Assembly (NCBI GenBank): GCA_036172245.1
Contig: JAYWIR010000005.1
Coordinates: 2,480,001 to 2,544,000 of the forward strand
Origin: Raillietiella orientalis
Lineage: Eukaryota
Direction: 5' to 3'
DNA: 64,000 nucleotides
Shown: piece by piece, positions 1-41,684 of the stretch
Layout of the letters: the number at the start of each line of letters is the position of its first letter
Numbering within the stretch: the stretch's first letter is position 1
Translations under genes and position numbers: made by a program
The notes under the pieces: generated by a model
What the model was told of the DNA's origin: nothing
Databases searched by the model: none
What the model saw: the letters and a program-made list of their open reading frames with translations, nothing else

Positions 1-684
1 CCCTGCAGTCGCCGAGCCTGAACAGCCCGCCCCCATGGAGGAGGGCCAACAGGTAGGCGCGACCTCACCTGAGGGTGACCCGCTTGACGCGCCGTTACCC
101 ATGGAGGAGGGGGACCAGGTGCCCGCAGCGCCTGACCCTCCTCCTCCACCTGGCGTCCCGCCCCAACAGGTGGCGGACGCCGCATCGCCATCTTCCCAGG
201 AGTAACACCTGGGCTCGCCAGTCGCCGTCGGATTCGCGCCGCCTGTTGGAACGTCAACGGGCTGCGCGACGACGGTAACAGGCGAGATACGGCCGACACC
301 CTGCGTGAGCTCGACCTGGCCCTGCTGCAGGAGATCCACGTGATCACCGCGGCAGACGCCCAGGAGATCGAGACGATCGCGGAGGGTCGGTTGTATTGGC
401 GGTGCGGCCTCCGCAACACCTGCGGGGTCGCGTTCTTCGTGAAGCCGGCCATCGACGCTGCCGTAAAGGGCGTGCGGTTTGATGACGACGGTCGGATCGG
501 TCAGCTGATTCTCAGCTGGTCCGTCAGACCATTCTCAGCGTCAACGTTGTCGGACCATTCCCGGTTAATTTTCGAGATGCGGTCTCCCGACAAGGGACCG
601 CCATGCAGGGACTAGCGTCTGCCGGGGGACTGGACGCGACTCTCAGTTGCGAAGGAACACCTTCGCGAATACCTGAGAGGCGTC

Positions 685-701
685 ACGCTCCGGAATCTCC
701 A
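685..701 (+). repeat. Left TSD of E1 (acgctccggaatctcca)
   Basis: Identical to 6235-6251. Confidence 0.95.
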
Positions 702-914
702 TTGAAACCCGGGTGTGCCGGGACGTTTATTCTCACGAAGAAACCTATACAATCTGTGACTGGACCAGTAGTCCAGCCACGCCCTGGAAAGATATAGCTT
801 GCCGGGCTACCGGTGCGCAGACCGGCGCGGTCGACCTCGGCAGCAGAGGGGAGGGGGAACGAAACAAAAAGAAAACAAAAAATAAACAAAAATCAGGGAG
901 GAAGCGGGAAGGGA

Positions 915-3900
915 TCACAGTCTGCTGGGAGGGTCCGTCATCCTCTGGAGGATGCCGGCAAGCTGTTTCTGCGTGTGTGGTTCCAGATGGGGCCATCGCG
1001 TCGCCATCCTGAGGAAACAGGCGGCATACACGTTGGCATCCCTGTCGCTGGATCCTCCCGTCGACTTGCTCCATGCCACGACGATCCCGCGTAGGCAGCA
1101 CAGGGCTGCAAGCGAGGCCGCTGGAGGCAGGGCGTCACGGACGAAGAGGGGGCGCAAAGCGTCTCTGGGGTTGCCTCCGGGGATCCCCAGGGCTGCGGCA
1201 AAGCGTTCCCACAAGGGACGGAGGGCAACACAATCCACTAACAGGTGGGGGAGGTATTCCCTCTCCCCGCACCTGACACAATTAGGGTTGACACCCCCCC
1301 TCGTCCAGTGGTGTCGGCGGGCGTTGCAAGGAAGCCCCCAATGCAACACCAGCAGTGCCGACTGTTGCCACTTCATGGGGAGGGTGCGCGAGTCCATGAG
1401 CACCGGGGGCCACTCGAGATGTTCCTCAGGAACATCCAGTAGCTCTCCCCAGCGCAACAGTCCATTTGGGGTGGTCCTCGGAATCGCAGCGTTGGTGAGC
1501 TGACCCGTTCTCCAATCCCCGATCTTCTTTGCCCTGCTGGAGATCTTGACAGTAACCTCCCATTGTGCCGCGACGTCGCTGCCCAGATGTTCCCGTAGGG
1601 TAGGCAGTACCGCAGCAAGGAAGGTTCTTTGTTCCCACGCTCTCCTTCGGGGATTCTCGATGATTTCTCGGAGCGTGCGGCGGGCATGCGGCCCGAACAG
1701 AGCTATTCGCTCGTGTTGCGGGCTCTGCTCCTGAATCATCGCCCACGTGCGGACGGTTTCCTGCAACCAGGCAGGACCGTTCGCGGGGCGTACGAGGTTC
1801 CGCGCCGAGTTGTTCTTCACGAGCTTGACCGCCCTCCGAAGTTGAAGTCCGCAGTGGCAGATGGGGCTTCGGAGTGCAAAGTAGGACGAGAGTCCTGCAT
1901 TGCCGGTGGCCCGCTCGAGGAGGAGACGTGCAGGGAGGCACCAAGGGGTGCACCAATTTTCTGCCATAAAGGCAACAACTCGGAACTGGAGCTGAAGCTC
2001 CAGCCGCTCCATCGTCAGGAGGCCCAGACCACCATCCCGACGAGGAGCGCACAAGTCCGAAAGACGGACTCGGGGCCTCCCTCTGCCCCAAAGGGCGATC
2101 CTCAGGAGGTCCTTCGTCCTCTTCTTTGACTCCGCTGAGGGGGGGCAAACAAAAAGCAAGGGGCGAAGGAGGGGGGCCGCAAACGCGTTCCACGCCGCGG
2201 CCCGTTCCTGCAGGTAGAACCTGCCGTCCTGGAACGGGCCGATCGCCGCCTGAGCCTTCTGAAGGCAGCCAGACCACGCTTCCCCAGTGGAGTAGTCCCC
2301 CAACGGCACACCAAGGTACTTGAAGTACCTCACCGTGGGGATCCCCAAACGGACCCAGTCCTGCTGCCCTGCCCACGCCGCTCCGATTGGCATTACGGAC
2401 GACTTCGCCCTGTTCACCGTCAGTCCTGTTCCCCGACTCAGTAGGTCGAAGAACTCCTCGACCGCCGCAGCCGGGGTGGACATAGGCAGCAGCAGCAGAA
2501 GGTCGTCCGCGTACGCCGAAACCGCTGGCGTACCGGGACAATCGCACGGCAGGTGCGCCAGAGTCTCCCTGTACGCTCTCAGCACCAATTCGAAATAGGC
2601 GCTGGAGAGCAAGGGGCTGAGGCTGTCTCCCTGCCGTATGCCGCGTCGCACCGGTACGCCGTACACGGTGGATCCACTAAAAAAAGCATTAATAAGCGCT
2701 TCGCGCCAGAAGGAGCGCAGGTAGGCCAGCAAAGAGGCCGGGAAGCCCAAGCGTTCCAGAAGCTCCAAAAGGAGATTCGGGTCGACGCAATCGAATGCTT
2801 TATGCAAATCGACTGCGACCGCGAGGGCTCCTGTCCCCTCCCGACCATTTCGTCCCCCACCGACGGACGCACCTGAATTCCGGTTGCTTATTATGCTCCT
2901 TCCTTGTTGGAGCTCTAACCATGTGGAAGCGTGGAACAGGTTCGCCTCCATACTTCGCCCGGGAACAGCATATGTCTGTTCCGAGCTGATGAAGATGTTG
3001 GCGACCCGTCCCAGGCGCTCTGCCCACAGCTTGGCTAGCAACTTGGCGTCCGCATTCACTATTGTGATGGGACGCCAGTTGTTCATGCTCCTAAGGTCTC
3101 CTCCCTTAGGAAGGAGCCGCACCTTTGCTGAACGAAACGAGGTGGGAACGTCACCTGTTTTGCGGATCAGCAAGGTGAGTTGCTGTACCAGGGGGGTAAG
3201 CTCAGCCGCGAAAGTTTGGTAAAACTCCGCGGGCAGGCCGTCCACCCCTGGAGCCTTCCGCCTCTTGAGCTTTCCGATGGCCGAGAGGATCTCGTCCATC
3301 GTGAAAGGCTCGTCGAGACTTCTTTTCTCCTCCTCTCCGATCGCTGGTGCACCTTCCAGAAGCAGAAGTCGTGAGACGTCTCGTTCCGGACGCGCCCTGG
3401 CGTACAGGGAGGAGTAAAATTTCCTCACTATCCCGCGTTTCTGAGCGGGAACCGAGTGCTCCCGGCCCTGGTCGTCCAGCAAGCTGGCCGACCCGGATTG
3501 CCAGGCTTGCCTCTCGGCTCCCGCTCGATACTCTGCTAACCTGCGCATGTCGGAGGTTCTCGCGTAACGTCGGGTCTCAAGATAGCACCTTTCGTTACGC
3601 GGCCCCTCTTCAAATCCCGCAGGTAGGCGATGCAGGGGGAACTGGTCGCAGAACTCCTGGACCGACCGCTTGAAGCGGTCCCAGTCCTGAAGTGTCTGCA
3701 TCCTGAAGCTCCAAATAAACGCGCGGAGGTGCTCCGCCGCGTCGGAAAACTTCAGCCAGTGTCCTGGCAGACGCCACGCTGACGAGGGGGGGCCCTTGTC
3801 GCACGGACGCACTTCGAACATGATCCGACCATGGTCCGACAGCTCGGATGGTACCTTGCCGCGCCTGCCCACCCGAGAGCATAGGTGCTGATCAAGGTAC

Positions 3901-4496
3901 ACGTGATCGATGCTGCTTTCCATGGCCGTGTCCCCGGCCAACAAGTTGCGCGTGTTCATTTCTGCGCACAACTCGTTGACGCGGTCGTTCAGTGTATCCT
4001 GCGCACCTGAAAGCAGGCGCAGGTTGAAATCACCTGCGATCAGGTGCGCTTTGCGAACTCCTGCATCAGTCAGCCAATCGCGTCTTAGGGCAAGGTAGAA
4101 TTCTTTTCTTGCCTTCGCCCTCAACGCGTTGTTTCCGCTAGGAGCGTATAGGTTGGTGACGACCAGGTCGAAAGAGTCGGACCAGAAGAGAGTCAGCTGA
4201 CCGACGCGACCTGCGTCATCGAACCGAACGTCCTTTATTGCGGTATCGATGTCTGGCCGAAGCAGGAAGGCGACACCGCTTGATTTCGCGGTGCCGCAAC
4301 ACCACAACAGCCGCCCACCCGAGATCCGTTCCATCTCCCGGGCTTGATGTGCGGAGATCACGTGGATCTACTGCAGCAGCTCCAGGTCGAAGGATGACAG
4401 GGTGGCGGCCACGTCACGCCTCTTGCCGTCGTCGCTTAGCAGGTTCACGTTCCAACAGGCGATCAGAAGACGACGGCGAGAGGCGACTTCCGGCAT
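915..4496 (-). pseudogene. E1 ORF2: APE endonuclease, reverse transcriptase, C-terminal CCHC Zn finger; one nonsense codon
   Basis: ATG at 4496. Motifs CWNVN, LQ*IH (TAG at 4368-4370 replaces the catalytic Glu), NLYAP, GDFN, IDH, SDH, APGVDG, WRPIT, DLHKAFD, RQGDSLSP, YADD, KYLG, CVRC...H...C. Otherwise open for 1148 codons. Confidence 0.95.
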
Positions 4497-6152
4497 TATG
4501 GCTGGGAAAGTGGCGTCGCGGCACCTGCCGCGGGGCAGGTGTAGGAAAGGTCCATCGGTACGAGGACCATCGGAACGAGGACGGAGGCCTCTTCAGGCGC
4601 CTGGGGTACCTGTTCGGCCTCCATCCTAACCATCCCCTCCGTGTCCAAGCGTGGAATTCTCTCGGGCGACGGGTCCCGGGAGTTTCCCACGCTCATGGCA
4701 CCCTCGCTACCGGAAGCCATCTCTTCCCCTTCGTCGGGGGAGACGATCTTCCGGGGCATTGTGGACTTTCGTCCTGCCTTTTTGCGGGGTGCCGCGGAGA
4801 TGGATGCTGTGTTTCCGGCCTTCACCTCGGGGTCGGAAGTGGCCGACTCCTAAGGGGAAGCCGGACGCCTGACGGCCTTCTTGCCAGCCTTGGGGGCAAC
4901 CGGCTGCAACGAGGCAGCCAGCTCCTCCGCGGCGCACTCGAAGGCGACGTCATCGAGCGTGGGCTCGATGACGGACGCCGCCGCCTCGCTCCCCTCCTTG
5001 TTGACTTTGTCAACGGAGGGTTGAGCAGGGGCAGCAGCGAGTTCTTTAGCGCCGCATTCGTCGATGGCGGGAATCCGCTCTACAACGACGCAGCAGCTTT
5101 TAATTTTTTCGCGGCGCAGAGCGGTTTCGCTCCGTTTCGCCACGTTCTTTCCCTTCTTATGGGAGTTTTTCTTGGGATGGACCTTCTGCCACCCTGGCTC
5201 TTGACCTTCGCCCTCGACCTTTTTGGCGTTTTTCGCCGGGGTCTCGGGGCTGGCCTTCGCCTTGGTGGCGGAAGTGACCTCCTTATCAGCAGCACGAGCT
5301 GCCAGCTTTTTCCTCTTTTTAGCCACGCGCTTTCTCGCGCTTTTCGCGGACACGACGCGGACTGTGTTTTGGGGGCACACCAGACGGGTGTGCCCCGCTT
5401 GTTTGCATTGCTGGCACTGCACGCTCAGACACATCATTTTAAGGTGACCAAAGCTGCTGCAGCAGCCGCAAAACTTGGGTTTCCCCACGTACCACACGTC
5501 AACGGATTCACCGTTGACGGTGAGTTTGTGGGGAACCTCACATCCCTCGCGAACCGTCACTCGCGCTGCATCCAGGCCGCCAAGCACCCCGTCGTAATCG
5601 ACAAAAGAAGTAGGCTTTCCCCACAGCGCGTGGACAGTTGCGAATTTTTCCAATTCGTTCCGGACGGTCTCCTTTGTCATCCGGAACGTGATACTGGTCA
5701 GGTGAATGATCACCGACCGGTCTTCAGTAATTGGGAGAAGCCTCCGGCTGCCCATAATTACGGGGGTTCGCAGAAGTCTCTGCGCAAGAGTTGCCTCCCT
5801 GCAGATAACTTCCACAAATTGACCCCCGCTTTTGACGGACATAGCCAGAAGCTCCTCTTTCTGTACGCCGAGAACGCGCATCGCCTGTGAGAAGGCGCGC
5901 GCGCTCTCGGGAGAATATAGAACGCCTAAATTATATAGAAGGGGTGGGTTATACCCCTCCTCCAGGTAAGCGCGCATTTCCGCCATAGCCGCTGGCGTAG
6001 GTGCCGCAGCTACGGCGTTCCAAGCCCTGGGTAGGGCCGGGGGCGCATCCGTGCTGGCGGGAGCCTCCACTGATGCGGGAGCCCCACCTCCATCTGCTCC
6101 GGGGGCAATGAGGTCATCGCCCCGGATCCTCACCGGTGGTGGTATCAGGCAT
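4496..6152 (-). pseudogene. E1 ORF1: gag-like protein with two CX2CX4HX4C knuckles
   Basis: CGCCSSFGHLKMMC and CQQCKQAGHTRLVC. ATG at 6152 is homologous to the F ORF1 start (MPD.TT). N-terminal frameshifts and an in-frame TAG at 4850; the frame continues to TAA at 4496. Confidence 0.9.
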
Positions 6153-6234
6153 TGCTGCCTAATCCTCCACCCACACCACGCACAAGCACGAACGGAAATG
6201 GAACTCGGGAGCAACGAAAGGACACGTCCGCTCG

Positions 6235-6251
6235 ACGCTCCGGAATCTCCA
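6235..6251 (+). repeat. Right TSD of E1
   Basis: Identical to 685-701. Confidence 0.95.
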
Positions 6252-8049
6252 GGACTGGGACCTTTTTAAGGAATCGGTCCGCGAGTTCTGTGAGCAGTTC
6301 CCACTGGATCGCCTGCCCCCCGGATTCGGCGGGCCTATTTACAGGCTCGTAGGTACGAGTGAACCCCTAATGTCCGTCGCCTGGCCGAGTACCGCGCCAG
6401 GGCCGAACGCCAAGCCTGGCAATCCGGGTCGGCCAGCTTGCTGGACGACCAGGGCCGGGAATGCTCGTCCCCGGCGTCGGTACGGCATCTCGTGCGGAGT
6501 TTTCATTCCTCACTTTACGCCAGGGAGCCCCCGGATCGAAACGCCTCTCGGCGCTTGCTTCCGGATGACGCCCCGGCAATAGGGGAGGAGGAGATGGAAA
6601 GCCTCGACGAGCCTTTTACCACCGGCGAAATTCTCGCCGGTATCAAAAGGCTCAAGAGGCGTTAAGCTCCAGGGGAAGACGGCTTGCCCGCGGAGTTCTT
6701 TCAAAGCTTCGCGAAAGAGCTGGCACCCCTGCTGCTTAAGTTGATCAGGCTGATCCGAGACGAAGGCGATGTTCCCGCCTCGTTTCGGTCAGCCAGAGTG
6801 AGGCTCCTTCCTAAAGGGGGAGACCTCAGGGATTTAAAGAACTGGCTTCCGATCACGATCGTGAATACGGACGTCAAGTTGATAGCAGGGCTATGGGCTT
6901 CGCGTCTGGGGAAGGTGGCAGAATCCGTAATTAGCCCGGAGCAGACTTATGCTGTTCCCGGGCGAAGTATGGATTCCAACCTCTTCTTCGCCAGCACATG
7001 GGTGCACCTGCAGAGAAGAGAGAAGAAAGGGATAGGGAAAGTCGGCAACCCCATATTGGGGCCGCCAGCCGGGCTGGGAAGGGACCCCCGGGCAGGGAAG
7101 GGGGCCCTAGCGCTCGCAGTCGATCTCCACAAGGCGTTCGACTGTGTAGACCAGGAACTCCTCTTGGAGCTCTTAGGTCATATGGGCTTCTCATCCTGCT
7201 TGATTTCCTACCTGCGCTCTTGCTGTCGGGACGCGATTATCTCAATCTGTTTTAGCAGTCAGAAGGTTTTTGGCATTCCGTTGCGGCAAGGCATAAGTCA
7301 GGGTGATAGTCTCAGTCCCCTGCTCTTTAGCAAATACTTTGTGTTGGTGCTGAGAGTATATAGGGTGACTTTGGCCCCCTTTCCGAGCTCGTGCCCCGGC
7401 ACGCCCGCCGCAGCAGCGTATGCCGACGGTCTTCTGCTTTTGTTGCCGATGTCCACTTTGGCAAAGTCGGTCGGGGATTTCTCCGATCTGCTTAGCCGCG
7501 GGACCGGACTACAGGTCAACAGGGCGAAATCGTCGGTGGTGCCAATAGGTGCGGCGTTGGCAAAGCAGCAGGACTGGGTCCGTTTGGGGATCACCACGGC
7601 CAGGTGCTTGAAGTACCTTGATGTGCCGTTGGGGGATTATTCCCCTTCGGATGCGTGGTCCATCTGCCTCCGTGAAGTCGAAACGGCGATCGGCCCGTTC
7701 CTGGAAGGCAAGTTTGACTTGCCCGAACGGGCCGGTGCTTGGAACGCTTTCGCGGCCCCCATCCTCCGCCCCTTGCTTTTTTTTGCATCGTCTTCTTTGA
7801 ATGAAAGAAGCGAACGAAGGAACTCGTCCGCATAGCCCTTTAAGGCAAGAGAGGCCCGAGCCCCTTTGAAGGATTTGTGCTTCCCGCGTCGGGACGGCGG
7901 TCTCAGCCTCCTGACGCTGGAGCGCGTGGAGAAACAGATGCGATGGCGCACCCTTGCCATTGCAGCGAAGCTATGGAGCACCCCTTGGTGCATTCCGGCC
8001 CGCCTTCTCGACAGCCGTGTGTCCCAGTGCGAGAGACTCGCGTCCCTTG

Positions 8050-10665
8050 GCCTTCATCTGGTCCCAGTCTTGGAGATTCCGGAGGATGACGCCTCGCAGT
8101 ACTTAGCGGAAATGTTCCGCCTCACCTGAGATGCGCGTCCAGTCCCCGAGGATACGCCACGCTCTGTATGGTGGTCGTTTGTCGCGAGGCATAACCTCGA
8201 ATATCAACCAGAAATGGTCCGATAGCGTCCACGGAAGTTTCCCTCGTCTGCCGACCCGTGGGCACAGGTTGGCGTCAAGGAATACGTGGTCTACGCTTTG
8301 GACCATTTCCGGTAGGTCCCTCAACAAGTTGCGCGTGCGCATAGCAGCGCACAGCTCGTTGGCTGCGTCTTTTTGCCCGCAAGGCACACCTGAGAGCAGG
8401 CGGATGTTGAAATCCCCACCGATCAGATGTGCCTTGCGTACGTTTGTATCCGCCAGCCAGTCGCGCTTGAGGGTTTCGAGGAACCGGGAACGTTCCCCGT
8501 ACCCGCGTCCTCCGCTCGGAGCGTACACATTAGTCACGACAAGGTCGATAGAGTCGGACCATCTAAGGATAAGCTGGCCAACCCGACTGTCCTTGTCGAA
8601 TCGCACGTCCTTGACGAAGGAAGCGACTGCTGGCTTCATAAAAAACGCGACGCCACAGGTGTTGCGAGCGCCTCATTGCCAAAATAGACGACCCCCTGCG
8701 ATCCTTTCGATCTCCTGTGCGTTCTCCGCGGTGATCACGTGGAGTGCCAGGTCGAAGTCACGCAGGGTGTCGGCCATGTCTCGCCTGTTGCCGTCATCGC
8801 GCAGCCCGTTGACGTTCCAGCAGGCTACGCGGATCCTACGGCGACAGGCGAGCCCAGGTGTTAATCCTGGGAAAGTGGCAATGGTGCTCCCGCCTCCTTG
8901 TCGGGTGGGATGCTAGGAGGAGGAAGTGGGTCGCGCACCGCTTCTCCCTCCTCCATGGAGGCCGAGTCTTCGTCAGGGACGTGCAGAGGAAGGGGGGTTT
9001 TACCCACCTGTACTTTCTCCTCCATTAGGGTCGCCAGCTGCATGGTGTCGGGAAATGAGAGATTCCCACCCTCGCCTCCCACGCTGCCGGCTTTTCCCTC
9101 AAGTGCCAGTTCATCCTCCTCCTTCTTGATCCGTATGCGCCTCCTGGGATTCTGGGACTTGCGTCCCGTCTTCATTTGTGGCGCCTTCGTTAAGAAGGAC
9201 GCACTTCCGACATCCGGTTCGGCCTCATTTGCATCCGGAGACTTCCTCGCGGCCGGCCTTCGTAAGCCTTTCCGAGAGTTCTTCTCACGGCCTTGCAGTT
9301 CAGCCGCGAGTTCTTCCACCGCCTGCTGGAAGGCGGCCTGCTCGATCGCGTCGAGCGCGGCGCGCTGTTCCCCCTGTTTCTCCAGAGGGTTCGCCATCGA
9401 CCGTCGCGGCTTCGGCGGACGCGACGGGGGGGATTGCTTCCCCGGTGGCGGCATCGAGTACCTCCACACGCTCTAATTTTTCGGAACAAGCCCGAAGTTT
9501 TTCGCGGCACGGTATTTTGCGCTGCGTTTTTGTTTTCCCCGCGCTTCGTTCGGGACTCCTGGGCTTTCTTCTGGGCTGTACCGTCTGCCAGCCTTCGCCG
9601 TCGCCAGCGTCGTCGGGAGTGCTCTCAACAAATGTTTGCTTGGATGGCTTAGGGACTGGCATCTGGCTCTTTACAGCCTGCTTCATGGTATTCGTCTCTC
9701 CCGTTCGTTTCCCCTTTGCCTTTTTGGCAGCGGGAGGGACCGGGATTTCTCGTCTTGGGCACACCTTGCGGATGTGGCCCTTGTTTCCACATAAGTGGCA
9801 TTAGATGTTAGGGCACCGTTTTTTTAAGTGCCCTTTAGCATCGCAATGGCCACAATACTTGGGCTTTCCCACGTACCAAACATCGACTTTTTCTTCGCCG
9901 ATATTCAGTTTGTGGGGAAGCCCACCATTCTCTGGTAGGGTGACGCGGGCTACGGCCATCCCACGGAATAGTCTTCCGTACGTTCGGAAGACATTGGGTT
10001 TGGCCCAATACGCTTGCACACTACTATGCTTCGACAACTCCTCATGGACGCTGGTTTTGTCCATTTGGAGTGATACGCCAGTGAGATGGACCACGACGGA
10101 GCGGTCCTCCGTCACAGGGAAGATCCTGCGGCCGTCCACCGTGATGGGGGTGTTCAGCAGTCGCTGTGCCAGACTTGCCTCTTTGCATGTCAGCTCAACT
10201 TGCTGGCCCCCACTAAGGACGGATAGGCCTAAAAGGTCTTCTTCCCTCACGTTCAACCTTTGCAGCTCCATTTCGAAGGAGCGTGCAATTTTTTCATCAA
10301 ACACACTGCCTACCTTATTGATCAGAGACGGCTTGTAGCCGCTGTCCTTGTAGGCAGTCTGCTCCGCTACTGCATCCGGGGATGGTGCAGGAACGACGTC
10401 ACTCCAACTCCTCGCCAATGGCGAAGAAGGTCGCGAAGGGGCGGTTGCCCCTGATTCCGATGGGGCAAGTGCCCCGGATTCCGTGGGGGCGGATGCCCCC
10501 ACTTTCATTGGTGGAGGAGAACATGTCGCTTCTCCTCCTCCAACTTCCATCGCGGTGTCCTCAGGCATTTCTGCCATGGGACACCGGTGCTCCCATACAC
10601 CAGACAACCAACGAAATGCTTACCACTAACCAGTCCGTGGAGCGATTCCAAACCACCTCCGCTGC
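8050..10665 (-). mobile_element. 3'-truncated Tx1/L1-like element E2 (ORF1 and APE)
   Basis: ORF1 fragments 9801-10607 (CGHCDAKGHLKKRC), 9300-9764 and 8861-9469. APE at 8103-8860 (NVYAP, GDFN, VDH, SDH). 5' motif near 10640-10665. Confidence 0.9.
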
Positions 10666-11264
10666 CTGGAAGGACGCGGGGAAGTGTAAGGCCTGAGTGT
10701 GCGAGTTGTGGGGAGCGGGAATCGCTCCCCCACCTACTTCTTGACCCTATGGGAACGGTTCGGGACGACCCTCGGGCTTTCGGTGGGCATCCAACCCAGA
10801 GACGTTTTCCGTCATCTCTTCGTGCGTGAGGTCCTGCAGTCAGCCGCAGCCGTGGCAGCACTCTGCTACATCCGAGGCATCGTGGCGGCCTGAAGCGATG
10901 CACGCGACGGAGGATTGGACGCTATCGAGAGGGATGTCTTCCCGTATGCGGTCTGCTTCATGCGGAGATCTACAGGATGGCCCCAGCTGGGTTCAATGCT
11001 GATGGACCTCGAGGAAATCTGCGAAGGTTGGACCCTCCTCTTAGTGGAATGTGATCCCTTCCCCTTCCTCCAAACTCTTTTTGTTTTTTCTTTGTTTTTA
11101 TTTTATTTTTTGTTTTCTCCCACATTTCCCTCCACTGCCGAGGAGAGTCATGGCGGGCTGCGTATCAGCAGGTCCGATGTTGTTAGGCCGTTAGTGAGGC
11201 CTCGTACCACGTCTTGTAGAGTTTTATTTTTTCAATAAACGCCTTGGTCATACCCGGGTGGAAA

Positions 11265-12770
11265 CCCCAAATCCCGCAGCTAAGCGGTGCAGAGGGAACT
11301 GGTCGCAGAACTCCGGGACCGACCGTTTGAAGCGGTCCCAATCCTGGAGTGTCCGCAGCCTGAAGCTTCGTATGAACGTGCGGAGATGTTCCGCTGCGTC
11401 CGGGAGTTTCAGCCAGTCCCCTGGCAAACGTCACGCTGACGATGGGGGGCTCCTGTCTCGCGAAAGAATCTGGAGCACAATTGGGCGATGGTCGGAAAAC
11501 TCGGACGGTAATTTGCCGCGCATGCCCACAAGAGTGCACAGGTGCTCGTCAAGGAACACGTGATCGATGTTGTCCTCCATCCTTGGATACGCGCTCGATT
11601 TTAACGCGGCATTCCTTCGTAGCATAGCACGGAGATTTCACCTTCGGTTTCGCAACTGTCTGCGAAATTTTCGCGTTTTCCATTGTTTTATTTTTGAGGG
11701 ATTTGATTTTGTTTGGCACCAGCTTTCAGCCATCCTCGTCGATTCCCTGTTCAGGAGTCGCTTCTTGCGATTACGTGCTAGGATGTACGACTGCCTTGTT
11801 AGCTGGTAGCTAATCCTCTGCTTGTTTAGTTCTATTGTTTTCTTCAGCCTTCTCCCCCTTTTTATTTTCCAGGTTTTCTGGCTGTGTAGCGACGTTCTTA
11901 GGGCACACAACGTTAGTGTGGTCCTTTTCGCCGCATGTTCGGCACGTTGCATCCGGACATCTCTTCCGTAGATGCCCGAAAGTCATGCATTTCCCGCAAT
12001 ATTTTTGCTTCTTAACGAACCAGATATCAACGAGCTCATCGTTGACTTCCAGTTTGTGGGGAAGATAGATGTTATCGCGGAGAGTTACTCGCGTGGCCAT
12101 GCGCCCACTAAATGTGCCTCTGAAACTGAAGGCGTTGGGCTTACGTCACATCGCGTAAATCTCCGCGTATTTGTTCAGTTCTGTGAAGATAAATTCTTCG
12201 TCCATCCGCACGGTTGTACCAGTTAGGTGGATCACTATTGAGTGATCCACCGTGTGTGGTAGGAGATTACGTTTCTCGAAAGGCACGGGCGTGCAGAGCA
12301 GTTGATGCGTGAGCGCTGCATCTCTGCAGATGAGCTCCGCAAACTACCCCCCGCTACGCACCGAAAGCCACGTGATCTCCTCATCGGAAATGCCCATCCT
12401 ACGGATGGCATTTCCGAATTTGCAAGCTGTAATTGCAGAATACAAGTTGCCTACCTTATATAGAAGATGTGGATTGTAGCCCTCCTTGATGTAGGCTGAG
12501 AGTTCGGCGGCCACTTCGGGACACGCCGACGCAGCAAACTTGTTTCAAGCCCTCGCCGGAACGGCGGGGGCAGATTTGCTGATGGGGCATGCAGCCACAT
12601 CCACGGGATGGGGAGAAGTGGGTCTCACGTCTCCCGTCGCAGGTTTTGCGGCGTCTTCTGGCATTTCTGCCTTCCAACGGCCGCCTTCCAACACACACTA
12701 ACTACTACTTGGCTTCGGTTTCAGGAGCTCGCCAAAAACGCGTGCGACCACCAGTCCGCTTTAATGCAGT
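11265..12770 (-). mobile_element. Degenerate Tx1/L1-like element E3 (5' end, ORF1, late APE); internal deletion at ~11590
   Basis: Knuckles CGKCMTFGHLRKRC and CRTCGEKDHTNVVC. IDHVFLD...SDH follows directly after the ORF1 tail. Confidence 0.85.
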
Positions 12771-15751
12771 GTCTTTTTTTTAATTAGTGATTAGTCTTCT
12801 GCACTTCTGTTTGCTTTCGAAGAATATCTGGCTTAATTTTTCGAGTTAAAGCAGCTGAAAAAAAAAAAAGTGAACAAAATTAATGAGGGTAGATTAATAA
12901 ATGGAACTATAGACAGGCATCTTTGATATCAACGTTAGATGAATTCATATTCTGGCAACGTCATTTTGCTGTGAAATTTTTTATTAGCGTTAACAATATT
13001 ACATTTATTTATTGAGCTTTCAATAGAATTACTGATTACATCTCTCGATCTAATTAGTTCACACATGGTCACTCAGATTGGCTACCTCGAAAATTTACAT
13101 ACTAAGTTTAGTAAGGAAGCTTTTCAAGGCTAAGGAAAGCTTTACTCAAACACTCACGCTGAAAACTCGAAATAAAATAAGGATTTTTTTTTATATAACA
13201 AGCTATTGAAAATCCTAATGGTTAACCATTAAAATTGTAGAATGCAACAAGAAGTAACTGTTTTGATAATAGAAATGATTTTCGCTAACAATTTTTACAT
13301 TAAAAGAACTCTTTGGTCTTTTTTTGAAATTATAGATATAGAGCTGGAAGACATTTTCATTGAAATAAATGCCAATAGTGTGATTTCTACTTACGTCCTC
13401 TTGAAAGAAGATACTTATCGGGTGTATTTGATTTAAATCGGGTGTCACTTTTGCGTTTCTTGAGTGTTCTTATGCATCAGAGCACAGAGAACACGAAAGC
13501 ATGTGGCATTCTGTTTTGTTCTCATTTCGTTCTAAAATGATTTTGCGTAACGATTACTGTATTTTCATTTTCTAAACCTTTTTCACCGATTTATAGAATC
13601 GATCAAAGTGCATTGGGGATAATAAAAGTTTATTCGTTTATCGGTTGTTTTCACCGCAAATGAAAATTTTTCTTTTAGCTAAACGATCAATTTTAATTCT
13701 AAAGTGCTTTACTTTGGAGTATCAGCTTAAAATGCCCAAATATTAAGCAAATGAAGCTCAGAGTGGAGTTCAATAGCTATTAGAAAAGGAAGTCAAAAGA
13801 TGGTTAAAAACTGATGTAGCATTCCAAAATGAAGAGAGAATAGATACCAAATTGATATGAACCTAGGAAACTAGAATCACTCTTTATGCAAAGAATTTGG
13901 CACCATGATACATACGACTAATTAGAAACAAGTTCAAGAAGTTAGCAAATTATAAAAAATTATGAGGAGGTGCTTTATGGTACAATTAGACTTAAGACCA
14001 ACTGATTTGATCCTGGAAACTAGACAGTAATCCACAAGCAACACTCTCTTTGTGTACATTTCACAATTTTGCTGTGTGTATTAAAATGATGTCTTTTAAA
14101 GATAGTTCTTCACATGGAGAAATTGGGTAATGCGTTCCATCGCTTTGACAGAACAGAAACTTGGTGGTTCTTGCAAAGAGGCCTCAGAAGGAGTTTATTG
14201 GTTGAAAGCATAGGATAGAAAGAAACGGAAGATCAAAAGGGATTAAACCCACTGATGTTCTGTATTTGCATTCTATCTAGTGGTGAGTATTTATGCATTT
14301 CCTCTGTAATTTTTGCTACGTACAGGTAGCAAACAGAAAACTTTACTGTCAAGAAATTCAGTAATTTCCAAGAAGTTCGATTCAATAGTTCCACCTATGC
14401 TTGAAATGCAACAGTTCTCCTCGAATATCTTCAGAGCAATAAAAATAGTCGAATGCTCTTTTTATTGTCCTGAGCATACTCGGAGCTGTCTACATGGTCT
14501 GTTTTAGAGCTTTCCAAAATATTGAATCTCTCAGGATAAGCCTCACTTTTCAGTTGGCTGAAATAAAAATATCGAAATCAAATGTGCAATGAGGTCTAAT
14601 CGAATGAATCATTTCTTCTATTGATCAACAAACACTTTTCAGTACAATGAATAAATGTGTTTAGAAGTTTTCGGTTCTTCAGAAGAGACAGCATTAAGTT
14701 TATTTACAATAACAAGCATGTTTCCTTATGTAAGCCTTGATAAGTAGGGGTTTCCAATGCTTAGCTACTAGAAACCAAGCCTGTGGGATCTGTTTTTTTT
14801 TTTTTATTTTTACGGAAACTTATTTACTTTCAAGAAATAACTAGAGTTTTACGGCTATTTTGATAACTGCCTTGATAACTCAAATAACAGACTCAGTACA
14901 CTAAAGCCTGTAGAAATCTTAAATATGATGTGACTGCAAGTGTTTGTGTGGACGTACTAGGTAGCACCTAATGCATCTGAATAAGGTAGAAAACGAGCTC
15001 GTCTTTCAAGTTAAAAAGCATTCAGGATTCAGGTTAGATAATGCTGTTTTTTGTAGCAAATATAGCATTCTAAATCTAATTTCCTTGTCTACATGTGTGG
15101 GTGTTTAGGATTTATGACAAAAACTTTTACAGCTGTTGTGTATGTTGAACATCATTATTTTGCTTGAATATTTTCTCCTGATGTTCATGTAGGCAGTTAA
15201 TTCGGCGTGCATCTTCATAGACACGTTCTCTTCTCGCGAATAAGTTCTGAGTGGCTGTTCTTCGAGTAGTTTCCACTATATATGCTGTTTCTTTGTCTGT
15301 ACAAATTGCTGAGTCAGTTTACACCATGTCCTATCACATGAGCTTTTAGTAAAGCCAAACCACATTATTTATGCATAAATTAAGAAATCTTGTGATTTCG
15401 TGATATACGAAATGAATACAAAGGAGCTGATTTGAAGTATTATATTCAAGGATTTTCAACGACAGTAGGTGCTAGAAATCGGTCGCATTCAGGAAAAGCT
15501 GATTGCTTTCATAATATGAGTACATAAAGCTTTTGGCAGCATACGCATTTTTGATTTGCATAAACGCATCAATGCAAATCAGAATTTCTTGCAAGCATTT
15601 TGTGTTTCCATCGCTCCAGAGAAGTGGGAAATCTCATAGTGGAAGAAACCTTGAGGGTTCCTTTACATCTTCCCTTACATTCATTATCCTTTTTCATTCG
15701 TTTCATATCTTGCAAAAAATATTGTTAATACAATTTCTCTAGCATGGCATT

Positions 15752-16831
15752 CTAAAAGTCGTCGTCTTTTTTCTTTGGAGAGCAAATGGATTCCATGTTG
15801 TTAGAGAATTTGGATTTTCTGCAATCACCGATGTCCAGTTCGTCAGAAAACTTCTTAGCCATGCTGCTGTTACATTGCGTGGAAAAGTGGCATTGGGAAT
15901 CCAAGTGAGCACGTGTACATGACGTGTTTGCACAAGAGAAGGTGAGCGGTTCTTGCAGGCATCTTTGAATTTCCTTAAGGCGTTCCGAAAGTGCTAATTT
16001 CGTTTCTGAATCACTAGAACATGCACTTTTCTTGCATAAATGTATTAGGAATTTGCTTTCTTCTTGGAGGCAACAGAGGATTTGTTCGATTCTTCTATCC
16101 TTTTTGCAGCGTTCTTCATTGAAAGCTTTAAAGCAGTGTTCATTCTTCTCCCTTTCTTCGCACAAAGTGTTGTTCAGGCGTTTAATCATCTGCTCAGCGC
16201 TGCATAAAGTTCCCCGGCACTCTTCCAAAGATCTGATTGCATTGGATTTTTCTAGCTCCAGCTTTTCCGTTAGGTGCTTATGTTTGTTGGCATCCAATTC
16301 TATTTCCTGGCATTTTTTCTGGATGCCTTCGTTGTACTCGACAGCAGCTTTAAGTTCGTTAATCATGTTTTCTTTCAGTTTGATCTGCTGATTAAGGCAC
16401 TCAAACCGTGACGTGATCTCCGAGCAGTCCTTCATGACCCTTAGATTTATGTTCCTCGACTGCTCCAGCTCGTTGAGAAGTTGACACACGACCTTTTCGG
16501 GTGTGACCTCTTTTTCTCCGTATTGGCTCACTATGTGTTGAGTCTGAGGCATTATCACGCTTTTTCTCATCTTTTCTAAATCTTCTTTTGCAAACTGCAA
16601 TTGCTGCTGCAGAGCTCCTTGGGAGCACTCCTCGTGTTTCTGTCCTCCTGGAGTATCTTTCGACTTCAGGGCTTTGATTTGATTCGCGATCTTTGTGAGT
16701 TCACCGTCCAAACCTTCCGTGATGCTGCTTATAATGGAGTCGTATCGTTTGTCGGAACTCTGCTGGGAAAACTGGAACTCCCTTTTGGTTCTGTCATACT
16801 CATCAAGCATTTGATTCAGTCTCTCTTCCTT
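15752..16831 (-). CDS. Host gene terminal exon, uncharacterised Cys-containing coiled-coil protein
   Basis: 360 uninterrupted codons with E/K/Q/L heptad-like composition in AT-rich DNA. Upstream 3' splice site: branch GCTAAC (16851-16856), pyrimidine tract, AG at 16832-16833, in frame with the ORF. Confidence 0.75.
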   Translation of the reverse strand, partial: KEERLNQMLDEYDRTKREFQFSQQSSDKRYDSIISSITEGLDGELTKIANQIKALKSKDTPGGQKHEECSQGALQQQLQFAKEDLEKMRKSVIMPQTQHIVSQYGEKEVTPEKVVCQLLNELEQSRNINLRVMKDCSEITSRFECLNQQIKLKENMINELKAAVEYNEGIQKKCQEIELDANKHKHLTEKLELEKSNAIRSLEECRGTLCSAEQMIKRLNNTLCEEREKNEHCFKAFNEERCKKDRRIEQILCCLQEESKFLIHLCKKSACSSDSETKLALSERLKEIQRCLQEPLTFSCANTSCTRAHLDSQCHFSTQCNSSMAKKFSDELDIGDCRKSKFSNNMESICSPKKKDDDF

Positions 16832-19800
16832 CTACGAAATGAACGAAAAAGTTAGCAAGAACTGTAATGATACTGAACGTTGGAGTTGAATCATAATAAA
16901 ATTGATTTCATCTTGCTGGAGACGGAAACAAGGAACCATACAAGTTTTCATGAGCTGAACTCGCACGTGCATTCGCGCCATTCAGCTGCACTATTCAGAT
17001 TACTTACTCAACCCATTTACCCAGTGAAAACGCCAGATACCTACTGACTATCCAATGCTGTGGAAAGTTTTCCTTGAAAAATGTGCCCCTCCACTGTGAT
17101 TTCACATTCTGCATTATGGTTTCTAGTCAAGTAACTTACCTTTACTGTGAGGTAATGAGGCAAATGAGGCAAATGTCATCGCGTGTCATTTGAACTGTAG
17201 GCACCGAATTCAAAATTAATTAATCGATTGCTTATTTGCATTTGTCTACGTTTATGAGTTGACGAACAGGGTTACGAATACTTCGCATGAAAGCTGTATA
17301 TCATTTATTAGCAACATCATTTTCACAGTTCTTCCATTATAATTGCCATTAGTGTTGGCTTTCTGCTATCATTTCTTTGGCATAGTACCTCAAAGAAACT
17401 GCTGAATATTTTCAGTAATAACGAGCATTTGTTCTCACATATCAATACCAATGATAATTAGGAAAATTTGTCTGTAATTGTCATAAACTATGCACATTTT
17501 AAAAAATAATTGTTCATTATCTTCATATTTGTTCATTCGAGGATGTGGAGGTCTTTTCTGCCATAGTGTATCTGCCATAATGCAAATAGCAGAGAATTAT
17601 AATGTCTTATTGGTGGAAGTCCTTGAGTAGGAAATTCATAAGCAAATAGAGTATTCTACTTTTTAACTTATTTTTAATTAAATAACTGACTCACTAAGAA
17701 ATTACAAGGATTTGTATGATCATGCTGTTGTTGCCATTTGAAACATCGATTTATAGAATTGATCAAAGTGCATTATCGGTTATCGGTTGTTTTCATGTGC
17801 TAACATAGTGGAATAATTAGCACATTTAAAGAACATGATTCCTCTAATATGTTACCAGTTATACGGACTTTTGGCTTTTCACATGAATTTGGTTTTCTTA
17901 CTTGGTGAGCTAAAGAGTGACGGAAACGAAAGTAACACATTAATAAAACCTGTTGAATGACTGAGCCAAAAAAAATCAAAGCATTCTTTACATTAATTCT
18001 TAAGATTCTTCTGAATTAATTGGTTTGGGATCCAGGACTCTGATACAGAATCACCAGCAATTACCATGTCCTAATAGAAAAGCATGTTGTCGTAAACAAG
18101 AGCTTAGTTTTACCGACATTTTTAAATGTGTTCTGTTTTTTAATAATGAATAAGAAACAGCTTACCATTCTCCTCTTGTATTTTTCTATGGAATGGTACC
18201 AGAGGAATAAAATAGTGAAGATAACTGCCGTGAAGCACAAAGTAGAGAAGCTGATTCCATTTCCGAAACTAAATGATGTTTCTTTATTTACTTTGGGCGC
18301 CATTACTTTTGGACGTTTTAATTTCTCTAAAGAATGTACAGAAGAAGAATTCAGAGAGGAACGTTTTCAAAAACAAAATATAGGAAGGGCTGAGAGGAGA
18401 AAAGAAAAAAAACAAATTTCAGACTTTAATAACTATAGTAACATGATTGTCAGTAAGAACTCCTACCACTGCCCATTCAGAACTTCAAAAGACAATCTGT
18501 CATCTCAATAACATACTGAAATCTTTTCTCAGTTATGTGCATCCAGACATGTAAATACATTTTTGAAAATACATGTTTGTGTGACATGAACAGCATTTTA
18601 ACATTTTCTCACTATTATTCCGAAATTTTTCGTATCAATTACAAACAGTTGTACTGATGATAAAGTCTCTTCTCTGAATCCGAATTTCCTATTTTTTGAT
18701 GGGAAGAGGCGCTGGAGCCGACCCATGGAATCCGCTGCATGTCCTGCTCAGCGAAGGCTCGAAAGCGCTCTTCTGGTCAGGTTTCCATAAACAAGGGATG
18801 TACTGTGGTCAAGAATGGCCAACGAACGCAAAATGTCGCGCGAAATCCAGAGGTTAGCAGCAGCTTCAGTTCTCCTCAACAGCCTAAAACAGAATGGCAT
18901 CGTGACGGGTGATGCTGGCATGCAGCGGAATGATTCGACATCTCCACTCATCCGACGAAGTTACATTTCTGAGAACGAACCCTGTGGATCTGGGGCCAGA
19001 GGATTACACAGTCAGGCAACAGACGCTACGTTTAATGGAGTGCTTGGAACATCCAGCATGCAAGAGACATAGACTGGCTACATCGGTTGGGCTAGCGGTA
19101 AGCAATCCCTGGAAGAGGAGAAGAGTAGGATGATTCTGAAATGGGGATTTCCCATCCTCATGGATTCCACCGTCCATTTAGTATTTCTTCTGACAGCTTA
19201 ATCGTGAATAAAATTGCTTATTCTTCTCATTGAGATCACCGTCCCAAGTCAAGAGGGTCTGTCCCTTTCTCTCGAAAGCCGTGGATTCGGATAACAACAG
19301 GCTGGAATGATCTCATAAGAGATGAAGGGCACATTCTTAGTGCGCGGTGCACTAAAATTAAGATAGTCCATTCTAGGTTGTTCTATTCAAGTGTCATTTA
19401 GGCTTCTTATGGAACAAAACACTTGTTCAGTGTCAGTGGCTTCAACCTTTTCCATCCTCCAGCTTTCCTTAGAAGCATTCTGAGCTCAGAAATGCTCGTT
19501 CCGTTCTCTTACTTCATCTCAACCATTTTACTTCTTTGCGGTCGTAACAAACAAAGACTTCCTTACTTGAGAGGGAATTATTTAGAACTACTGCAAGAAG
19601 CATCGCCTCTGAAAGAGTTTGAGATCTGTTTCGTAGAAGCAGTCGGTGGAATGAAGCTTACATCATTTAACACGAATCGTTGAATCTGTTCTGTGGATCC
19701 ATTCCTGCCACAAAGGTGTCTTCAAGGAATGGATTAGCGGCTAATTGCTCCGAACCACGTAACCTCGCTTCTAATTCTCCTGATTCTCATGAGTTTGTCT

Positions 19801-22469
19801 TCCGAGATCGCATCCCATTCTCTTTGCAATCTAGAGAGCGTACCACCAATTCTTGTTTCAGCCATGATCGATTGGGTGTCTTGGAAATCCGGTTCAACTG
19901 CTTTGAGATTACTTAGACTTCAGTCGTTTGCTAGTCACTGTCGAAGTCAGTCTTGGGTTGGTGGTTTCTCACGTGCGCTCGTCTGGAGCAATTTGCGTCA
20001 ACGCTATCTCATTTTCTTTAATTGCCGCGGCTGCTGTGAAGTCGTTAGAAACCACAGTCAGCTGTAGTTGCCTGCATCTGGCTGAGTTCATCTACGTCGA
20101 CTCCTACATGCTCTCTAAGATGGAAAAGTTTAGGATGTGCTTTCCATAGGCTACCTGAACCATCAAACGACGGAAATAACTACAGAAGAAGAACTATCTG
20201 GGGAGAGCTTTGATACTCCCCAAAGTGGCTTAGTTTCCGGTGCATCTTGCAGCAAAACTGAGAACAAGAAAACAGAAATCAGACCACGAGAACAGCAATA
20301 TTTTCGTTGGATATGTAAGCTAATGAAAGTATTGCTTAATCGGCGCGAACTATAACATACGTTTAAGAAGAGAACAAGCAAATATAGGAAGAGGGATTTT
20401 AGGATTTTCTCTGCCAATCTCTTTTTCTCTTCCCTCTCATTGTTCTTAAGAGGTTTGCACATTACCGGAGATACCCAGTGTGTGTTTCCTTAGAACACTG
20501 CACATCTGGGTGTGAATGCATTCCATCTGCCCATTGAAAATTACCGTTCCTCCCAGTATTTCATGATTGGCTAAGTTCCAGGATTACGGAGATCCTGCTG
20601 TTAATCCCCTTCCTGTGGCAGGCGCTCCTTTGGAAAAGCGAAGGGCCTATTCTAGATGTTTATTCTCCTTTCTACGTCTCGCCTCTTCCAGTGCTATTGA
20701 GAAGTACTCACATGAAGCAAGAGACATCCAAGAGTTTTCCTTCGTTCTGAGTGGGGTGCTGCAGAATGCAATACCCCATCTGGCCATAGCCTTGAATCAG
20801 TTTAAGCAATTTTCTGATTGGTGGTCACCAACTCCCACTGCTTCCATATGTGGTCCTTGATTTGGGTTACCAATTCTTTGGACCTTTATCAAGCAATAGT
20901 TGTTCCGTATATCCTTTCAGAAGGCCATCTAGCAGTGCTTGTGCTGCTTCTAGAAGCAAAGTTTTTGACTCCATATTCTCAGGATTGGGATGAGACTTGG
21001 AGCTCTTCATGTCACAGTGCATTTTTCCTGGTTTCTGCTTCACCATTTAAGTGTTACATATGTTGAATCTCTGTGTGGCCATAGAGACTAAGCGAATTGC
21101 CTCAATCTCTTCTAAGTTCACTATCCCTTGATACTGCTCCTCACGGTTGCCATCTGCTCCATGGACAGTATCTAGTACGGCATACAATGCTTTCCTTAAA
21201 GAAGGGCTCGATCCCCGATGTCGAGAACTGATGGAAATGAATGTCTCATTTTCCTGTATGTCGGTTTTCATCGTGCCTGAGTCCTTGCTCTCTATTTTGA
21301 TAACACTTGCATTGGGATTGCTTTCCGAGTTCATATCGACTGCGGCTAAGTATGCGCTTACTGATCGTTGTGGAATAGGAGAATCCTTTCCCTCTAGGAA
21401 TCCTGATTTTACCGTGTTTCCCCTGCGTCTGTGCCCCTTCACTTGCCAGTGCGTATGGTCCATCACCGTCTTTTAATCGACATATCACATTTTGCATTGA
21501 TATTCTAAAGTGGATTCCGACACCGGTAGGCGTCTGAACAACTCGAGTCACTCATATGATTAGCGCACGTCCTGTGTTGTGGAAATTTTGAAAATGAATT
21601 AAAATATTCTTTGCTGTTGAATTTTCTGGATACGGTAGTACGAGATCCATTGTAAAGGACGTTGCGAAAAGTGGTGAAAAAAATCGATCGCAAGCATCGG
21701 CATGTGATGGAGATTTGGAGGAATGCATGTCTAGAGAGCGCCATGCGAGGTAAACAGAATCATAGAAGGTATATTTCTTTGCACAGTGAGGAGATGAGAG
21801 TCCACAAAAATGGAATAAGAAAGACTTTTGTGAAAGAAATGTCCTAAACAACATGGGGCGACTTTACGATCCATACGCACACGAAGAAGAAAATCACTCG
21901 AGTCTGCAGACAGCTCAATGCAAAACACCTCTTTGCTGCAGAGCGCTCAGATCAAGGGAAGAACATGCCTTGTCTTAGACCAACATCAGTCATCCCAGTT
22001 ATCGTCTGTACAACGACAAACATCTGAGGTCCTCAGACTGCACATTTATCCATGAAGTGACTACTGTAGCTTCGGCAAATACGGATACCATGCACCAAGA
22101 ATGGAAGAGATTGTCCATGCGGAAGATGTAAGTGGTGGAAGCAATTCCTAAGACACATTCTCAACAGATGTATAATAACGGAAAGGCATGAAATATTCGT
22201 TACCGCAAATCAAAAAACACGTAATGAAATAGTGTCCATGCTGAAAAACTGTATAAAGTACCTATCGGTATTTTCAAAGGATTCTTAATGATCCTTCATA
22301 CAGTTTATTATTCTGCTCATTGAGATGTCTCATCAGAACTCAGATATCTGCATTTTATGGGATTTGCACTCCACTCACTGAGTCTCGGGCGCTGATGCTT
22401 TGCTGTGACCTCACTTTCTCTTTGCTCTGTGTTCCTGCACTGCCTTCCACATCTGCAGAATCAACAAAG

Positions 22470-41046: not shown

Positions 41047-41684
41047 CGCTCGAAAGCGGACGTGTTTTCTCGGTGCTCCTCGTGCCAGGAAGTCTCCTCT
41101 AATGCTAGCGTCGTGTAATTCGGTGGTTGAACAGGCAGCGATGCCTGACGCGACCACCAGGGATGGACAGGGGGCGGTGGCAACGTCGCCCCCAAAGGCG
41201 ATGAAGGTGGGGGCATCCGCCCTCACAGAATCGGTCCCCGCTGCAGCACGGGCGTCGAGCGCCGTTGTGTCGGCGCCATTGCCTGCAGCCGCGGCGGAAT
41301 CAACCTATGTGGAGGAGGGGTATTACCCCTCATTGTTCTACAAGGTAGGCAATCTATATTCTTTAGAGAGCGCGCGCGCCTTCACGAAGGGGATGCGCTC
41401 TCTCGATGTGAAAGAGGAGGAGCTCAGCTCTATGACCATCCGCAGCAGGGGTCAGTACGTTGACGTCATCTGCAAACAAGCAGAGCTGGCCCAGCGACTG
41501 CTTCAAACCCCCTTGGTGATGGGGACGCGCAGGCTTCTCCCCATTACGGCGGACCGCAGCATGGAGGTCTACCTATTAGGCGTGACCACGCGGATGCGGA
41601 AGAAATAGGTTCGCGCCGCGTTGGAGGAAGACGGTACGGTCCACGCGCAGTGGACGAAAGTTAGTCCTTTTGAAGACAACACGC

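Follow-up and report, generated by a model that had tools for sequence, protein, structure and literature searches.

Members of the L1 superfamily of long interspersed nuclear elements (LINEs) carry two open reading frames (ORFs), the second of which (ORF2) begins with an apurinic-type endonuclease (APE), continues with a reverse transcriptase and ends in a Cys-rich part. A LINE inserted by ordinary target-primed reverse transcription (TPRT) always retains its 3' end. Twin-primed L1 insertions were reportedly treated by Ostertag and Kazazian in 2001, and the work of Kojima and Fujiwara is said to concern target-specific LINEs of the L1/Tx1 group inside other repeats. In the part of PMC2912911 drawn on here, the length of L1 target-site duplications (TSDs) peaks at 14-16 bp. 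Non-classical L1 insertions (NCLIs), as presented in a portion of Sen et al. 2007 (PMC1920257), are truncated at the 3' end, without a TSD or a tail; target-site deletions were found at 18 of 21 loci and microhomology is discussed. We analyzed a 64,000-nt stretch of DNA from Raillietiella orientalis (contig JAYWIR010000005.1, positions 2,480,001 to 2,544,000, forward strand), here called the window, whose left 12.8 kb is a nested pile of L1-like LINE copies.

We propose that positions 1-12760 form a stack of decayed copies of two L1-like lineages (E and B), built by successive retrotranspositions into earlier copies, in which E3 received B1, B1 received E1, and E2 entered in a non-classical manner. 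We give this history as a whole a probability of about 0.55. Read most simply, the sequence within the window gives the nesting order E3 > B1 > E1. The layout was mapped by self-blastn and by tblastn with the two proteins of E1, and codons are given in the numbering of E1 ORF2. The pieces are as follows.

1-701, plus strand: left piece of B1, cut by the window edge, with the inter-ORF region and ORF2 codons 1-61 and 172-225 (tblastn, blastn, translation)
685-701, plus strand: first copy of the TSD, ACGCTCCGGAATCTCCA, the final 17 nt of the B1 left piece
702-6234, minus strand: E1, a full-length L1-like LINE of 5,533 bp (Pfam, translations, termini)
6235-6251, plus strand: second copy of the TSD, ACGCTCCGGAATCTCCA, belonging to B1
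6252-8046 (6235-8046 with the second TSD copy), plus strand: middle piece of B1, ORF2 codons ~221/226-826, the reverse transcriptase part
8037-8046, no strand assigned: junction overlap of 10 nt, ACTCGCGTCC, that fits both B1 and E2 (alignments; overlapping tblastn ends at 8045 and 8037)
8037-~10637, minus strand: E2, a LINE assigned to the B lineage, 5' 2.6 kb only, with ORF1 and ORF2 codons 1-236
~10638-11264, plus strand: 3' piece, probably of B1, with ORF2 codons ~1005 to the end, 3' UTR, AATAAAC box and tail ..ACCCGGGTGGAAA
11265-~12760, minus strand: E3, the 5' part of an E-lineage LINE, with ORF1 and ORF2 codons 147-250

Insertion of E1 into B1

The first-pass annotation placed E1 antisense inside B1 ORF2 with a perfect 17-bp TSD, and this was borne out. 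The sequence ACGCTCCGGAATCTCCA is a perfect 17-nt direct repeat at 685-701 and 6235-6251 that exactly borders the 5,533-bp minus-strand element, and it occurs nowhere else without mismatch. It had no match in 100 dinucleotide shuffles, and no repeated 17-mer of any kind appeared in 200 block shuffles of positions 1-14000. The other repeated 17-mers in that interval are confined to a homologous ORF2 stretch of E1 and E3. B1 ORF2 is continuous across E1, with codons 172-225 ending at 702 and codons 221-250 starting at 6238 by tblastn, and the insertion point lies at codon ~223. Because the perfect duplication stands at both ends of E1, the insertion of E1 into B1 by canonical TPRT is proven. Its length of 17 bp agrees with L1-type TPRT as treated in the part of PMC2912911 used here.

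E1 begins at 6234 with the canonical 5' terminus CGAGCGGAC, which is common to four other copies in the window, and ends at 702 with ..ACCCGGGTTTCAA. Its 3' end (..AATAAACGTCCCGGCACACCCGGGTTTCAA) shares an AATAAAC..CC..GT box with other copies and is without poly(A). ORF1, at about 6152/5986-4850, encodes two CCHC knuckles; its long ORF is in a frame other than that of the conserved ATG at 6152. ORF2 (4496-915, minus strand) has 1,194 codons, from M at 4496 to a stop at 917-915, with one in-frame stop at 4370-4368. E1 is young, yet not intact. Such a nearly intact copy suggests recent activity.

Family identity

The E1 ORF2 (915-4361, minus strand) matched the Pfam families RVT_1 (5.5e-21; 75.6 bits, cut-off 29.6) and Exo_endo_phos (7.7e-07; 29.5 bits, cut-off 24.5), while zf-RVT (0.0065) stayed under its cut-off. 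In a comparison with the PDB, its best solved relative was human LINE-1 ORF2p (E 1e-42), with R2 proteins at 7e-13 or weaker. The elements are L1-like APE-type non-LTR (long terminal repeat) retrotransposons, as placed by the Pfam and PDB comparisons only: in ORF2 an apurinic-type endonuclease precedes a reverse transcriptase, and a TSD flanks the full E1 insertion. The poly(A) or simple-repeat tail of the L1 clade proper is not seen, the 3' ends reading ..ACCCGGGTTTCAA, ..ACCCGGGTGGAAA and ..CCAAGTTTAAAA. Because these ends lack poly(A), the elements are filed as L1-like and not under the strict L1 clade. Among 5.8 billion proteins, no relative of more than 26% identity was found (17 hits from 7,999 scored candidates).

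Two C-x2-C-x4-H-x4-C knuckles are encoded in the ORF1 of both E1 and E2, and such a pair of CCHC knuckles is a feature of plant-type and Tx1-type L1. A Pfam search of E1 ORF1 returned no family, and a PDB search of ORF1 gave no hit. With the L1 superfamily the elements share the two ORFs, the order of the three parts of ORF2, a 17-bp TSD (E1) and the occurrence of 5'-truncated copies elsewhere in the window. They differ in having, instead of a poly(A) tail, a conserved AATAAAC..CC(G/A)(G/A)GT box followed by 3-6 mostly A residues, and they are 58-62% GC in a host of 39% GC. When five 3' ends were folded to a consensus, the sole product was a weak stem of 8 pairs (-1.84 kcal/mol) with one compensatory pair, on which we base no structural claim. 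At the other end, a 5' terminus of the form (A)GCGGAC(G/T)(G)GT is common to five copies of different lineages (6234, ~10637, ~12760, ~35840 and ~41060), a sign that full-length 5' ends are precise and that the 5' leader is conserved. The region thus records two previously uncatalogued L1-like lineages without poly(A) and with conserved termini.

The two lineages separate over 160 columns common to all copies. E1, E3 and the copies R60 and R33 are mutually 68-80% identical. E2 is 74% identical to B1 compared with 58-60% to E1 and E3, which on identity places E2 in the B lineage and not in the E lineage to which it had been assigned at first. Base composition sets the pile apart from the host island on its right. 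Positions 1-12000 are 54-62% GC and positions 12001-22000 are 36-43.5% GC. The island at 12771-22400 has 38.7% GC and an observed/expected CpG of 0.72, compared with 52-65% GC and a ratio near 1 in the LINEs. The four longest ORFs of the island that were tested matched no Pfam family. What this means for genome annotation is that no host genes lie in the 12.8 kb to the left of the island.

The pieces of B1

The left piece of B1 is 75.5% identical to E2 and 72.7% to E1 by blastn. It has a private in-frame deletion of ~330 bp at ~523-541 that removes ORF2 codons 62-171, the endonuclease core. The middle piece is disrupted by a frameshift near 6300-6327 and by three in-frame stops, and matches RVT_1 (3e-14) over 6684-7835. 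It is 72.9% identical to E1 at the nucleotide level and 62.7% at the amino acid level (6297-8045, tblastn), and the alignment with E1 extends as far as ..ACTCGCGTCC. The plus-strand sequence breaks off at 8046 (codon ~826) and is taken up again at ~10638 (codon ~1005), where the 3' piece starts. The latter is interrupted by a frameshift near 10746 and a stop at 10891, and its best matches by tblastn and tblastx are the C-terminus and 3' UTR of E1.

The first-pass annotation had counted this 3' piece to B1 and had named its origin from an unrelated copy as a finding that would overturn the nest. We compared its identity to E1 with what either parent would predict. The copy R60, used for calibration, is 77% identical to E1 overall and 72.8% in the C-terminal part, a ratio of 0.945. 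A piece of B1 is thereby predicted to be ~69% identical to E1 (72.9% x 0.945), and a piece of E2, itself 59-65% identical to E1, to be 56-62% identical. The value found was 70%, over 330 coding and 590 total aligned nt. The same strand, the collinear codons and this near agreement favour an assignment of 10638-11264 to B1, as far as sequence comparison can take it.

Public sequencing data were searched as Logan contigs. In one run (X1), which contains related sequence, 0.34 of the sampled words were found. Its contigs on positions 1-13000 are fragments of other copies, 95-99% similar and mostly at 1-7400 (B1 and E1), so that the B1 and E1 families are multicopy in the X1 sample. They leave 8681-9114 and 9983-11284 without cover, which says nothing either way. 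Two further runs (X2 and X3) match only a 30-nt low-complexity stretch near 862-893. One Logan contig fits B1 from 538 onward and carries 136 different letters before 538, which suggests that other copies of the family are without the ~330-bp deletion of B1.

The junction of B1 and E3

A plus-strand LINE 3' end (..AATAAACGCCTTGGTCATACCCGGGTGGAAA, with the tail ..ACCCGGGTGGAAA) that resembles ..AATAAACGTCCCGGCACACCCGGGTTTCAA of E1 stops at 11264. From 11265-11268 onward, ORF2 codons 147-250 are read on the minus strand, 80% identical to E1 in nucleotides and 71% in amino acids. By blastn, this stretch is 80% identical to E1 3611-3923, 82% to a copy at 60.7-61.0 kb and 75% to a copy at 33.2-33.6 kb. 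E3 follows its relatives (E1, R33 and R60) up to ..GGGATTTGGGG and then gives way to the reverse complement of the B1 tail with no filler. The early claim that B1 abuts E3 on the opposite strand at 11264 therefore stands, with the difference that the break is not in the middle of ORF2: of some 1,190 codons it falls at ~250, where the endonuclease part finishes. An insertion of B1 into E3 predicts that a canonical LINE 3' end should meet a broken E3 without filler, as it does here, and from this one junction we infer that B1 probably inserted there. The candidate TSD CCCCAAATCCCG.. occurs once in the window, its other hits being the homologous site of E1 (2 mismatches) and a chance-level hit with 3 mismatches. 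We also considered E3 as a break-primed insertion beside the B1 end and rejected it, as the homologous E-lineage copies offer the B1 tail no complementary sequence there.

E3 itself has a 5' terminus, AGCGGACTGG, at ~12760, in place of the end at 12770 given earlier. Its ORF1, from an ATG at 12664, is decayed, and about 1 kb has been deleted near 11590, between the ORF1 tail and ORF2 codon 147. E3 fits the oldest layer of the pile because it is the most decayed, has short ORFs in several frames, has lost about 1 kb and has the lowest GC (52.5%, compared with 58-65% in the other pieces). CpG depletion was of no use as a marker of age, since none was found in any piece (observed/expected 0.87-1.10), which leaves GC as the only useful one. 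From the nest the copies can be cleanly ordered by relative age, E3 before B1 and B1 before both E1 and E2.

E2, a truncated copy without a tail

E2 is a minus-strand copy between plus-strand pieces that reach 8046 on one side and start at ~10638 on the other, as had been noted before under the label of an E-type element. Its near-canonical 5' terminus at ~10637 reads ..CACGGACTGG, compared with AGCGGACTGG in E3. ORF1 runs from an ATG at 10577/10568 to ~9453 with one stop, and ORF2 codons 1-236 occupy 8738-8037. A match to Exo_endo_phos at 8103-8639 (minus strand; E 0.003) is under the cut-off. Everything 3' of codon 236 is absent, namely about 2.9 kb of ORF2, the 3' UTR and the tail. At this end, the 10 nt ACTCGCGTCC at 8037-8046 extend the alignment of B1 with E1, which has ACTCTCGTCC there, and are at the same time the antisense of ..GGACGCGAGT of E2, which aligns with ..CGCGAGT in B1, R52 and R57. 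No direct word of at least 6 nt is shared between 7990-8050 and 10620-10690, and hence no TSD was found for E2. On the target side, B1 codons 827-1004 (about 0.53 kb) are missing. The antisense position given at first thus holds, and the simple E-type insertion that went with it does not: the structure fits a microhomology-primed insertion of an endonuclease-independent type, or a later deletion, to go by the anatomy. E2 and the B1 middle piece were also tried as halves of one inverted element and this was discarded, as their 49-nt overlap is only 78% identical and the TSD is perfect.

E2 resembles the NCLIs described in the portion of Sen et al. 2007 cited above (PMC1920257) in its 3' truncation, the absence of tail and TSD, the ~0.53 kb of missing target and the microhomology at its 3' junction. 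It differs in reaching the very 5' end, whereas the human cases are for the most part strongly 5' truncated too, by at least 3 kb in 18 of 21 in that portion of the source. In the sequence of E2, an insertion of this type and a later deletion would look alike.

Proposed history

We propose the following order of events. An E-lineage element, E3 (minus strand), would have come first, beside AT-rich host DNA, to go by its one junction. The B-lineage element B1 (plus strand) would then have entered E3 at ORF2 codon ~250 by TPRT, and its 3' end at 11264 would therefore touch E3. Next, E1 (minus strand, E lineage, full length and nearly intact) entered B1 at codon ~223, as its 17-bp TSD shows. E2 (minus strand, B lineage) may have entered B1 non-classically between codons 826 and ~1005. 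In that event, a free plus-strand end of B1 (...ACTCGCGTCC-3') would have annealed to the complementary 10 nt inside the E2 RNA, at codon ~236, and served as the primer for reverse transcription as far as the RNA 5' end. The cDNA would then have been attached to the far side of the break, at the cost of ~0.53 kb of B1, leaving no 3' part, tail or TSD. A single break-primed event of this kind would account for the 5' end of E2, its stop at codon 236, the 10-nt overlap, the absence of a TSD and the gap in B1.

The early description of the whole as a nest of E3 > B1 > E1 and E2 is retained for E1, by its TSD, and given up for E2 as a simple insertion of E type. Nesting of LINEs within LINEs as seen here is ordinary for a repeat-rich eukaryotic genome, and the significance of the locus beyond annotation is little. 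E2 is a candidate for break-primed entry of a 3'-truncated LINE outside mammals, which would be of modest interest if the genome holds many such copies.

Alternative explanations

The structure of E2 could also have been reached if it arrived complete by ordinary TPRT at B1 codon ~1005 and was later shortened by a deletion of ~3.4 kb between chance 10-nt repeats (ACTCGCGTCC), which took the 3' 2.9 kb of E2, a TSD copy and about 0.53 kb of B1. The exact canonical 5' end of E2 adjoins B1 as this course would have it, the 10-nt overlap at 8037-8046 could equally be the product of microhomology-mediated deletion, and other internal deletions are present in the pile (about 330 bp in B1 and about 1 kb in E3). 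We nonetheless hold it to be unlikely, if well worth keeping in mind, as it needs two events instead of one, its deletion must begin in B1 and finish in E2 at a 10-nt match, and no remnant of the E2 3' end or of a TSD is left. A different course follows from E2 and B1 being of one lineage, so that the 3' piece could be that of either. E2 and 10638-11264 might then be one plus-oriented, 5'-inverted insertion of a single B-lineage RNA, its tail primed at the E3 site and a second end primed at codon 236 and copied to the RNA 5' end. B1 would end at 8046, outside E3, and a large target deletion would have joined the flanks. In topology this does resemble twin-primed L1 copies as set out in part of PMC2912911, where an inverted 5' segment, with microhomology at its outer junction (here the left one), stands head-to-head with a tailed sense 3' segment. 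Here, however, the flanks do not join up (the left one is B1 in sense, at codon 826, and the right one E3 in antisense, at codon 250), there is no TSD around the inverted-plus-sense unit (the longest shared word is 5 nt), and about 2.3 kb (codons 236-1005) are missing at the inversion junction. The two segments are also unequally distant from E1, the 3' piece being 70% identical to it, near the 72.9% of B1 and not the 59-65% of E2. We consider this origin improbable.

A separate question is whether the alternation of strands reflects a preference of the elements. All three nesting relations on the left are antisense, for which the chance is 1 in 8 if orientation is random, and the three breakpoints at codons ~223 (E1 in B1), 236 (the break of E2) and ~250 (B1 in E3) lie inside a 93-nt stretch of ORF2. 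A fourth antisense relation is seen on the right, where a plus-strand copy ending at 56349 lies in a minus-strand ORF2. These facts would suit LINEs with an antisense preference for codons 223-250 of sibling ORF2s, the last stretch of the endonuclease part, as a place to enter or to prime, which would build strand-alternating nests. If true, new insertions would be confined to dead copies, and E2 would show the same stretch of RNA serving a break-primed, endonuclease-independent entry. Against such a preference, the targets TCC/TGGAGATTCC, ?/CCCCAAATCCC and ../CGCATCAGCG have no motif in common, the case on the right lies at codon 400 and thus outside 223-250, and five of the eight copies that cover codons 223-250 are unbroken there. 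A rough scan statistic of our own over about 9 internal breakpoints gave p around 0.13, and neighbours on the same strand are common elsewhere, as at 35.9-41.0 kb, where four minus-strand copies follow one another. We found no sign of targeting, whether site-specific or mutual, the three readable 3' junctions having unrelated targets. The likeness to target-specific LINEs of the L1/Tx1 group is limited to LINEs of the L1 superfamily lying inside other mobile elements; the difference is that independent insertions here use different targets and ORF2 positions and that most copies are unbroken. We therefore think a targeting preference very unlikely; the alternation of strands is most likely chance, and the unexplained cluster of breakpoints is probably chance as well. 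Least probable of all, and in our view scarcely credible, are assembly chimeras at some of the junctions (B1/E2, E2/3' piece, B1/E3). The region is repeat-rich, made of related repeats, and none of the listed Logan pieces (226-411 nt) bridges a junction. The partners are nevertheless only 58-80% identical, too different for an assembler to collapse or mis-join, and the junctions fall at canonical element termini, those of E1 with a perfect TSD.

That no listed Logan piece bridges a junction weighs against the proposed history, and so do the following points. Sequence does not separate a non-classical insertion of E2 from a later microhomology-mediated deletion. The nest of B1 in E3 is seen from one junction, the left B1/E3 junction, with the B1 5' end and E3 codons above 250, being beyond the left edge of the window; an exact 60-nt scan of metagenome contigs for a leftward extension gave no match. 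No TSD was found at junctions other than those of E1, and what remains rests on collinearity and parsimony. The assignment of the 3' piece to B1 draws on about 600 nt and on a calibration from a single other copy. The cluster of three breakpoints is left unexplained by a reading of chance. The word alternating, finally, which was first applied to the nest, is true of strand only: E2, 74% identical to B1, is a B-lineage copy inside B1, and for it there is no alternation of the form E/B/E. A protein-guided scan for the leftward extension gave seven loci, all distant (26-42% identity over parts), and these were not used.

Other features of the window

The first-pass annotation saw the pattern of the left side as a repeat of one on the right side of the host island, and this was spot-checked only. 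The plus-strand copy that ends at 56349 does adjoin a minus-strand ORF2, at codon 400. No TSD for it was found among the listed direct repeats of at least 11 nt in 51000-57600.

At ~35875, two minus-strand LINE copies meet head-to-tail, a 3' end (..AATAAACTCCCCTGCGCAACCGTGTGAGTAG) being followed by a canonical 5' terminus (CGAGCGAGAGCGGAC..). Head-to-head junctions, at which a minus-strand ORF2/ORF1 fragment meets a plus-strand 5' UTR/ORF1, are present at 41046-41122, 44674-44891 and 59444-59610; they could be 5' inversions or further nests. A full-length match to the U4 spliceosomal small nuclear RNA lies at 51736-51874 on the minus strand (92.6 bits over model positions 1-138), amid the LINE pile on the right and about 670 nt upstream of a plus-strand LINE 5' end near 52548. 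It could be the functional gene or a retro-pseudogene made by LINE activity. Its presence and the LINE-type ORFs mark the window as eukaryotic. The U4 match is adjoined by a GC-rich imperfect tandem repeat at 51305-51528, with CCGCCGCGGGC.. units at spacings of 27-54 nt.

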